From Acinetobacter geminorum (GTDB lineage Bacteria; Pseudomonadota; Gammaproteobacteria; Pseudomonadales; Moraxellaceae): a stretch of 7,228 bases of DNA. Where the stretch lies: NCBI RefSeq assembly GCF_013009345.1, contig NZ_JABELE010000007.1, positions 178,713-185,940 on the forward strand. Direction: 5' to 3'. How positions within the stretch are numbered: position 1 is the stretch's first letter; each line of letters begins with the position of its first letter. The notes below the pieces were generated by a model, which searched no databases, was not told where the DNA came from, and saw nothing but the letters and a program-made list of their open reading frames with translations. Positions 3,017-3,070 of the stretch are shown here, one piece after another. A program made the position numbers and the translations under genes.

Positions 3017-3042
3017 TAGTATCAAAGGCTTACTTATACGTC

Positions 3043-3070
3043 ATGACGTATAATGTATAATATGTTAAAA
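3043..3070 (+). other. Internal near-canonical 28-bp dif-like site: ATGACGTATAA, TGTATA, ATATGTTAAAA
   Basis: By hand alignment it matches 21/28 positions of E. coli dif (GGTGCGCATAATGTATATTATGTTAAAT), including the identical 6-bp centre TGTATA. The XerC-like arm is the right half of the perfect 20-bp palindrome TTATACGTCATGACGTATAA (3034-3053). Confidence 0.6.

Follow-up and report, generated by a model that had tools for sequence, protein, structure and literature searches.

A probable duplex XerC/XerD recombination site in Acinetobacter filamentous phages that carry a separate CTX-type folded attachment site

We analyzed 7,228 nucleotides (nt) of Acinetobacter geminorum DNA (contig NZ_JABELE010000007.1, positions 178,713-185,940), hereafter the window, to which all positions below refer. 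The window is part of an Acinetobacter filamentous phage (inovirus) prophage array and contains the end of one element, A, followed by a second element, B, which extends from approximately 904/913 to 7158. Element B carries a dif-like site on the plus strand at 3043-3070, here named J2. We conclude that J2 is probably a functional duplex XerC/XerD recombination site of Acinetobacter filamentous phages that enter the chromosome via a separate, CTX-type folded phage attachment site (attP). The evidence consists of the match of J2 to dif, comparisons with shuffled sequences, its conservation among related phages and its hybrid junctions with the host dif. In the following, P denotes the XerC arm of J2, H that of the host dif and F that of the folded attP. 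Junctions are written as XerC arm/right half, where the right half is that of dif, J2 or the folded attP, and L-numbers refer to the compared contigs and loci.

J2 is composed of the XerC arm ATGACGTATAA (3043-3053), the center TGTATA (3054-3059) and the XerD-like arm ATATGTTAAAA (3060-3070), all on the plus strand. A previous sequence-only reading of this DNA had reported that J2 matches the E. coli dif at 21 of 28 positions, including all six bases of the center, and the letters confirm this claim. The A. baumannii dif, TGTTCGTATAA-TGTATA-TTATGTTAAAT, was read from empty sites in three chromosomes, where it is located about halfway round the chromosome in the context ...AATTGTTCGTATAA-TGTATA-TTATGTTAAAT-AAAAGATTTGG... 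From this reading it follows that J2 carries the exact center of the host site, and the overall match is 22 of 28 positions. The center is also identical to that of the published A. baylyi ADP1 dif, GATTCGTATAATGTATATTATGTTAAAT (PMC2731167). The XerC arm agrees with the host arm at 8 of 11 positions, with CGTATAA intact and ATAA at its end. The XerD-like arm agrees with the host arm at 9 of 11 positions, the mismatches being the first and last bases only, and the innermost T of the ATAA-center-TTAT motif is replaced by A.

A match of this quality is not expected by chance. The second-best dif match within the window is 18 of 28, and none of 300 dinucleotide-preserving shuffles reached 21-22 of 28 against the dif sites of E. 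coli, A. baylyi ADP1 or A. baumannii (means of the best matches 17.5-18.0, maxima 20-21). It could be argued that J2 is a chance look-alike of dif, or merely a TATAAT-rich promoter or terminator for the adjoining operons, given that a palindrome precedes the site and that two TATAAT hexamers overlap it, the second of which is created by the phage-specific A. The hexamers were noted in the sequence-only reading, correctly in number; the second starts at 3056, and the first is located at 3049-3054 rather than 3050-3055. A consensus scan of positions 2650-3450 called neither a terminator nor a sigma-70-type promoter with a -35 partner at J2, most relatives lack the palindrome, and hybrids between J2 and the host dif were observed in 17 contexts. 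As the sole explanation, the chance or promoter reading, which the sequence-only reading had itself offered as an alternative, is contradicted by these results and we consider it extremely improbable. Thus, judged from its sequence and its relatives, J2 is a genuine Xer-type site and neither a chance match nor a promoter alone.

The conservation of J2 was examined in relatives found via the Rep protein of element B, which retrieved 24 viral contigs with 57-100% Rep identity. In most of these, CGTATAA-TGTATA-ATATGTnAAnn follows rep at a distance of about 355-365 nt or, in some, about 800 nt, and the most divergent relatives with the site in this position have 63% Rep identity. The exact J2 19-mer, CGTATAATGTATAATATGT, is present in more than 120 IMG/VR viral contigs, which is a minimum count. 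A version with a CGCATAA arm was found at 33 further loci, 31 of which are phage contexts. Altogether, the related Acinetobacter inovirus contigs with J2 number more than 150, and three closed circular episomes carry it as well, which agrees with the earlier proposal that this phage family carries a duplex site after the gene in the ssb position. Among species-representative genomes, the 19-mer was matched 11 times, eight times in Acinetobacter and three times elsewhere without phage genes; the latter three are taken as chance matches.

The individual parts of the site differ in their conservation. The XerC arm is variable (ATTTCG-, ACTTCG-, TGTTCG-, ATGACG- and ATTGCG-TATAA), while the center, the A that opens the XerD-like arm and the following block are nearly invariant. 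The opening A was present in all 19-mer and CGCATAA contexts retrieved, and the same phage context with the host T was seen in two viral contigs only. The block, ATCAATAACTTA, is non-coding, is located directly after the XerD-like arm on the side of the structural module (3071-3082, plus strand) and is found in nearly all J2 contexts, whichever structural gene comes next. The upstream motif ATCAAAG (3021-3027, plus strand) is widely conserved after the post-rep gene, with a TCAA-type motif at this position in 82 of 105 J2 contexts. In the window, ATCAAAG starts at 880 and 3021 and CGTATAATGT at 906, 3047 and 7152, so that 19 nt separate the motifs in A as well as in B, as the sequence-only reading had stated. 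Conservation beyond the J2 core is limited to about 25 nt on the upstream side and about 12 nt on the downstream side.

The palindrome at J2, TTATACGTCATGACGTATAA (3034-3053), is a perfect 20-bp inverted repeat that contains the XerC arm, so that the arm forms one half of it, as had been noticed from the sequence. As a family feature it was ruled out, since a perfect version occurs in no more than 3 of 97 distinct contexts, among them L163 with the compensatory variant TTATACGGCATGCCGTATAA. Another seven contexts have 8-bp palindrome arms with a 4-nt spacer, and 74 show no inverted repeat. The palindrome is thus specific to a lineage.

We compared the junctions formed by these phages at dif, with counts that refer to distinct sequences and not to independent events. 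H/dif is the empty site, P/J2 right half is J2 itself, and F/folded attP is found inside phage genomes. Every chromosomal left end that we observed is H/folded attP (L002, L008, L012, L168, L174, L176-L178, L181 and L182); in L008, L176 and L177, this CTX-type end reads TTGTTCGTATAA joined to TGTGATG..., with TGT in common with the dif center. Of the 19 distinct right ends, 17 are P/dif hybrids in which the J2 XerC arm is followed by TGTATA, TTATGTTAAAT and the chromosome, and two of these (L023 and L168) carry the window's own ATGACGTATAA arm. The other two right ends are F/dif. P/folded attP junctions are present in the window (912/913) and in L027, L038, L178 and L182. F/J2 right half, as expected for an excised structural-module circle, was not found in approximately 130 distinct J2 contexts.

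The junctions bear directly on the possibility that J2 is the primary duplex attP, of the VGJ or TLC type, through which a double-stranded replicative form enters a naive dif and is excised again. In favor of this, J2 has the complete 11-6-11 layout of a dif-like site together with the host center, the P/dif hybrids are one of the two products expected from such integration, and re-insertion of a circle into an existing P/dif would leave no new junction type. The other expected product is H/J2 right half, that is H, TGTATA, ATATGT... and structural genes, and it was seen neither in the roughly 130 distinct J2 contexts nor in a direct scan of viral contigs for the A. baumannii version, while all chromosomal left ends are H/folded attP. 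One candidate for this junction, L159 from A. baylyi, was found to be an ordinary phage context after the post-rep gene. Primary duplex integration is disfavored because the left-end product was never seen, and we regard it as quite unlikely. The suggestion that element A uses the site as a VGJ-type attP for entry thus finds no corresponding junction.

A typical chromosomal array has the order H/folded attP, replication module, J2, structural module, F/folded attP, replication module, P/dif. Arrays of the form replication-J2-structural-replication-dif were observed in L002, L012 and L168, with two replication copies that are 100% identical over 2.1-2.2 kb. The record of Acinetobacter phage M02 (L001, OQ693633) has J2 at 115 and a J2-dif hybrid at 5931, and the segment 5931-6243 continues from the hybrid into the chromosomal flank of the A. 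baumannii dif. Since the end of the post-rep gene is also repeated at both ends, this "complete circular genome" looks like a cut-out from a prophage array rather than a free genome.

The folded attP of element B is assembled from two ends of the element. Its XerC arm, AGTTCGTATAA, is located at 7148-7158 (plus strand) and is followed by a repeat of 913-983 that extends to 7228. The right part of the site (913-1001, plus strand) consists of a 13-nt center (913-925), the XerD-like arm TTATGTTACTA (926-936), a G+C hairpin and the inverted site AGTTCGCATAA-TGCAGAT-TGATGTTAAAA with a 7-nt center (973-1001, minus strand). As single-stranded DNA, the segment 896-1006 is predicted to fold into a forked hairpin (free energy -25.4 kcal/mol, z = -7.3), formed by the site read on the plus strand at 902-936 together with the one read on the minus strand at 973-1001. 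The site thus has the features of a CTX-type folded attP, namely an inverted dif-like pair about 90 nt apart, one long and one short center, and a forked hairpin of the plus strand. The same arrangement, with a cargo gene followed by A[A/G]AGTTCG[C/T]ATAA joined to TGTGATG..., was observed in L020, L021, L026 and the closed circle pAb-D10a-a_4.

Of 123 viral contigs, 75 have J2 and both arms of the folded attP, as do 14 of the 17 contigs of genome length that have terminal repeats and three closed circular episomes (pAb-D10a-a_4, pANC7912.4 and pM131-7). The presence of both sites in most genomes, including closed circles, shows that two Xer sites are the norm of the family and not an artefact of array formation. 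The sequence-only reading was right that one phage carries a folded and a duplex site, and wrong in considering this unusual. The three episomes (L165, L166 and L218; 6.4-7.0 kb) have been filed as non-mobilizable plasmids. They are complete filamentous-phage genomes with rep, coat, Zot and both Xer sites, and probably represent phage replicative forms. In L025 (6746-6790), a J2 site with its ATCAATAA block abuts the GCCCC hairpin of a folded attP that lacks its plus-strand half, a type of junction for which the simple model gives no explanation.

The closed circles also raise the alternative that J2 serves to resolve multimers of the double-stranded replicative form, with recombination at dif as a side effect. 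An Xer site with a 6-bp center on a small multicopy circle is a known multimer-resolution device of plasmids, as exemplified by cer and psi, and J2 on the closed episomal forms resembles this configuration. Against this, no accessory region of about 180 bp is evident beside the short conserved flanks, relatives that lack J2 replicate with the same Rep family, and the near-universal P/dif ends of the arrays are not explained by multimer resolution itself. We consider this function very unlikely as the main role of J2.

Insertions into plasmids provided a natural contrast to the chromosomal arrays. Plasmid pC9_1 (L216, NZ_CP113443) carries two complete tandem phages at a plasmid Xer site, ending F/TAGAGA-TTATGTTAAAT, and plasmid pmZS (L217, NZ_CP019144) carries one complete phage, ending F/TGCCCA-TTATGTTAAAT. 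The terminal structural module is kept on both plasmids and is missing in 17 of the 19 distinct chromosomal ends (one-sided hypergeometric p of approximately 0.03, calculated by hand with relatedness ignored). The contrast is suggestive of retention of the terminal module where the center differs from TGTATA and where dif activity driven by FtsK would not be expected. On these large plasmids (L216 and L217), and also at the left flank of L006/L007, the phages occupy Xer sites that adjoin toxin-antitoxin dif modules. The arms joined to the folded attP there are of the ATTTCGTATAA type, and the target centers TAGAGA and TGCCCA are tolerated.

The positions of J2 and the folded attP coincide with the borders of two modules. 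The 2.1-kb replication module was found alone between chromosomal flanks in L008 and L177 and in tandem in L178 and L182, and L038 represents a 2.6-kb unit with replication functions only, whose terminal repeat measures 144 nt. Breakpoints in similarity between the window and its relatives cluster at 900-925 and 3000-3100. In L002, the replication module of the window (1097-3091) is present at 99.5% nucleotide identity beside an unrelated structural module. In L021/L022, B-like structural genes (Zot 94%, p59 100% identical) are accompanied by a Rep with 82% and a post-rep protein with 56% identity. These observations agree with the earlier suggestion that Xer sites bound a replication and a structural module. 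In the compared sequences the module boundary is J2, with breakpoints that fit Xer-mediated exchange and homologous exchange within the conserved segment of about 85 bp alike.

The join between the two elements of the window falls exactly at the boundary between the XerC arm and the center of A's own J2. The arm, ACTTCGTATAA (902-912, plus strand), runs into the folded attP of B, with the crossover at 912/913. Past CGTATAATGT, the sequence in A is the one found in B past its own copy at 7152, positions 904-983 being identical to 7149-7228. The uninterrupted A site, AAAACACTTCGTATAA-TGTATA-ATATGTAAATA, was found in L012, which also contains the dif hybrid of A. The sequence-only reading had proposed that B integrated into A's copy of the site. 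The location of the join is as proposed, and the intact copy in L012 identifies it; integration of phage into phage is not needed, since B would most simply have used its folded attP to enter the terminal dif of an A array, a dif with an XerC arm derived from A's J2.

P/folded attP junctions, such as the one at 912/913, suggest yet another explanation. In this case only the XerC arm of J2 matters, since it serves the folded attP of replication-module mini-circles resembling RS1 satellites; the P/dif ends would result from CTX-style integration of these mini-circles after the full phage, and the right half of J2 would be a promoter or some other element belonging to the structural module. The five P/folded attP junctions, the replication-only unit L038 and the identity of the replication copies within an array are all in line with this, and CTX-type insertions of full phages and mini-circles can build all types of array. 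What remains unaccounted for is why more than 150 phage contexts preserve an XerD-like arm at a distance of exactly 6 bp and the host center, and no sigma-70-type promoter was called there. The first mini-circle derived from a full phage would still require a crossover at the XerC boundary of J2, and none was added to the two plasmid-borne arrays. We conclude that replication-module mini-circles that integrate in the CTX style probably exist, and that it is unlikely that they account for J2 alone.

Based on the conservation of J2, the hybrid junctions, the junction types and the module-only elements, all documented by the comparisons above, we propose that a second, canonical duplex Xer site in cis would make the otherwise one-way integration of single-stranded DNA reversible. 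Recombination between J2 and the array-terminal dif, which would depend on matching centers, would release complete circular genomes from replication-structural-replication arrays, leave behind RS1-like landing pads with the repressor retained, and reshuffle replication and structural modules. A single XerC arm would serve the duplex site and, in remnants or mini-circles, the folded attP. We hold this broader proposal with slightly less than even confidence.

Integration would start when the phage single strand folds its attP (7148-7158 joined to 913-1001) and XerC joins this structure to the dif that terminates the chromosome or an existing array. In the window, the product would be the A-B junction at 912/913, where the P arm of A is joined to TGTGATG... 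with TGT common to the attP and dif centers. The simplest target of B would be the dif closing an A array, already bearing A's P arm, and this is supported by L012 with its intact J2 and dif hybrid of A. J2 and the terminal dif would then be direct repeats with identical centers and, as such, are proposed to be recombined by XerCD. The terminal copy would thereby lose its structural module, P/TGTATA/host XerD arm would become the new chromosomal dif, and the array would end in a replication module. The internal J2 of a replication-structural-replication array could plausibly release a complete circular genome by recombination with dif, leaving a 2.1-kb remnant, and the reverse reaction would re-insert it. 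The A in place of T beside the XerD cleavage position would probably damp FtsK/XerD-driven (XerD-first) loss. We infer the direction of the reaction and which recombinase acts first. In A. baumannii, deletion by XerCD between dif sites in direct repeat depends on FtsK, XerC cleaves without FtsK, and a site departing from the ATAA-center-TTAT motif is poorly recognized or inactive (PMC11705084).

Several observations weigh against the proposed role of J2. In 5 of the 24 Rep relatives, the post-rep gene runs directly into the structural genes without J2, which indicates that the site is dispensable for this type of phage. Two chromosomal arrays end F/dif despite carrying J2. The identical centers of J2 and dif make the junctions silent on whether XerC, XerD or both acted, and the junctions fit a deletion and the integration of a replication-module mini-circle alike. 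The excised circles are deduced, and the closed circular episomes could equally be products of replication with no excision involved. Two cases underlie the plasmid contrast, which could also reflect absent FtsK activation on plasmids rather than the mismatch of centers.

The J2-less relatives have a different folded pair, with the centers CTCTATA and CTTAAAA (phage forms in L018 at 1541/1683 and L035 at 1019/1162). Their chromosomal hybrid (L036 at 5951, minus strand; L167 at 16694 and 6968, minus strand) consists of a host-like XerC arm, TGTATA and a phage-side XerD arm. This composition places the crossover on the XerD side, with the prophage inverted relative to dif, and XerD-side exchange might therefore operate in this lineage.

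With respect to the genes in the window, the end of the replication module of A occupies 1-866 (plus strand), with the rep C-terminus at 1-534 and a post-rep gene of 107 amino acids at 543-866. The two encoded sequences are 100% identical to proteins of L012/L013. The post-rep protein of A is also identical to proteins of some A. baumannii genomes, and the Rep of B to those of several others. The replication and regulation module of B (913-3053, plus strand) is RS-like, as assigned from Pfam matches and the module-only loci. It includes a small gene in the repressor position (1147-1350, minus strand), rep (1450-2685, plus strand; Pfam Phage_CRI and G2P_X_C) and the post-rep gene in the ssb position (2696-3016, plus strand; 106 amino acids). 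The post-rep protein has no Pfam match, matches phrog_15713 of unknown function, and has homologues that were found in Acinetobacter only. Its AlphaFold2 model (pLDDT 74) has the order b1-b2-b3-helix-b4-b5, and the top Foldseek matches are the OB-folds of PriB and SSB with marginal E-values of about 1e-3. The predicted OB-fold with these best matches fits the ssb-position label.

The structural and cargo module of B (3054-7158) contains, all on the plus strand, a zinc-ribbon-like open reading frame (ORF) of 29 amino acids (3097-3186; weak Pfam matches), the coat gene (3428-3664), a pIII-like gene (3769-5103), a DUF2523 gene (5106-5390), the Zot gene (5387-6670) and a conserved gene of 74 amino acids (6922-7146; phrog_10717, unknown function). 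The first and last of these are small and cysteine-rich and flank the Xer sites, the 29-amino-acid ORF right after J2 and the 74-amino-acid ORF shortly before the folded attP. Since the genes of known Xer activation factors adjoin the respective attP, these two ORFs are candidate factors.

The non-coding parts of B also have distinct features. An island with 65% G+C at 1000-1099, between the folded attP and the gene in the repressor position, contrasts with 25-40% in the rest of the element; no function is evident for an ORF there, and Rfam gave no match to the island or to any other part of the window. The region between the repressor-position gene and rep (1351-1449) is full of direct and inverted repeats of the GTGACAAATAA and TTGTCACA type and is operator-like. 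A block of about 150 nt after zot (6672-6830) is approximately 83% conserved among otherwise different structural modules (L005, L007 and L011). It contains GTGTCT/AGACAC inverted repeats, and its single-strand fold is no better than that of shuffled sequences (z = -1.3).

The current classification assigns each Xer-exploiting element a single type of attachment site, and integration of the CTX type is taught as irreversible. In Vibrio cholerae, such functions are spread over separate elements (CTX, RS1 and TLC/VGJ). A folded single-stranded attP and a duplex site with the dif center in one phage family would, if confirmed, mean that entry and exit are split between two Xer sites of one genome. 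The window belongs to the same phage group as the Af filamentous prophages of A. baumannii (Gavric et al. 2024, PMC11209303) and phage M02 (OQ693633). The A. baumannii prophages have been described as "flanked by replication modules", with use of XerCD suggested, and the passages retrieved from that study define no att site, junction or second site, nor does the word attP occur in its text (PMC11209303). Our interpretation of J2 would explain this published and so far unexplained arrangement. It gives exact rules for the borders of prophages at dif in a major hospital pathogen. The XerC arm of the cell's only dif is phage-derived in these lysogens. The insertions into plasmid xrs sites tie the phages to the Xer-based gene shuffling of Acinetobacter plasmids. 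The findings are relevant to research on Xer recombination and on Acinetobacter mobile elements. Within the literature covered, which is incomplete, no paper was found that defines these att sites or describes a phage with both kinds of site.

Comparison with known systems places the two sites in different classes. The attP(+) of CTXphi consists of two inverted sites about 90 bp apart, with centers of 12 bp and 5-7 bp, located between the cargo and repressor genes (PMC4246890). The phages studied here share with CTXphi and RS1 the spacing of the inverted dif-like pair (here with 13-nt and 7-nt centers), the forked hairpin of the plus strand and the location between a cargo gene and a gene in the repressor position. 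They also share the junction of the host XerC arm to the attP center at the left end and the tandem arrays at dif. As in RS1, a module with a repressor, rep and a small OB-fold gene also exists alone. Unlike in CTXphi, which has no additional canonical duplex site and whose integration is described as irreversible, J2 is located between the modules and most arrays end at J2.

VGJphi is likewise a filamentous phage with a duplex dif-like site that would allow excision. Its attP is the sole att site of the genome, has 29 bp and shows no dif homology on the XerD side of the center (PMC4246890). In contrast, J2 coexists with a folded attP, its 6-bp center is identical to dif throughout, and a left end with the host XerC arm, the phage center and the XerD arm was never observed. 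The label "VGJ-type duplex attP" given to J2 in the sequence-only reading is therefore not appropriate. The plasmid pdif/xrs modules of Acinetobacter resemble our phages in using the same recombinases, in the XerC-arm family ATTTCGTATAA and in having Xer-bounded modules, and the phages also insert at xrs sites. The sites of pdif modules are inverted, have differing centers and were not excised by XerCD in tests (PMC11705084), whereas the phage sites are direct repeats and the J2 center is the same as that of the chromosomal dif.

The duplex attP of TLCphi has been grouped with those of the Xanthomonas phages Cf1c and phiLf and a gonococcal island (PMC4246890). J2 resembles this type in being a 28-bp duplex site with a non-canonical XerD arm and a reaction that is reversible in principle; as in the TLC type, the compatibility of the center with dif on both sides makes both strand exchanges chemically possible. 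It differs in that the XerD-like arm deviates at 2 of 11 bases and is not absent, and in that no junction shows the use of J2 for entry. There is also no XafT-like helix-turn-helix gene beside J2, where the neighbors are the OB-fold protein and the 29-amino-acid zinc-ribbon ORF. The upstream neighbor was considered as such a helix-turn-helix protein and rejected, since its structure model is an OB-fold. No match to an Xer activation factor was obtained beside J2 in Pfam or PHROG, and a sequence search of PDB was uninformative; a divergent factor encoded elsewhere is possible. Thus, as far as sequence comparisons can tell, J2 by itself is closest to the duplex-site kind of TLC and Cf1c, and the phage as a whole behaves like CTXphi and RS1.

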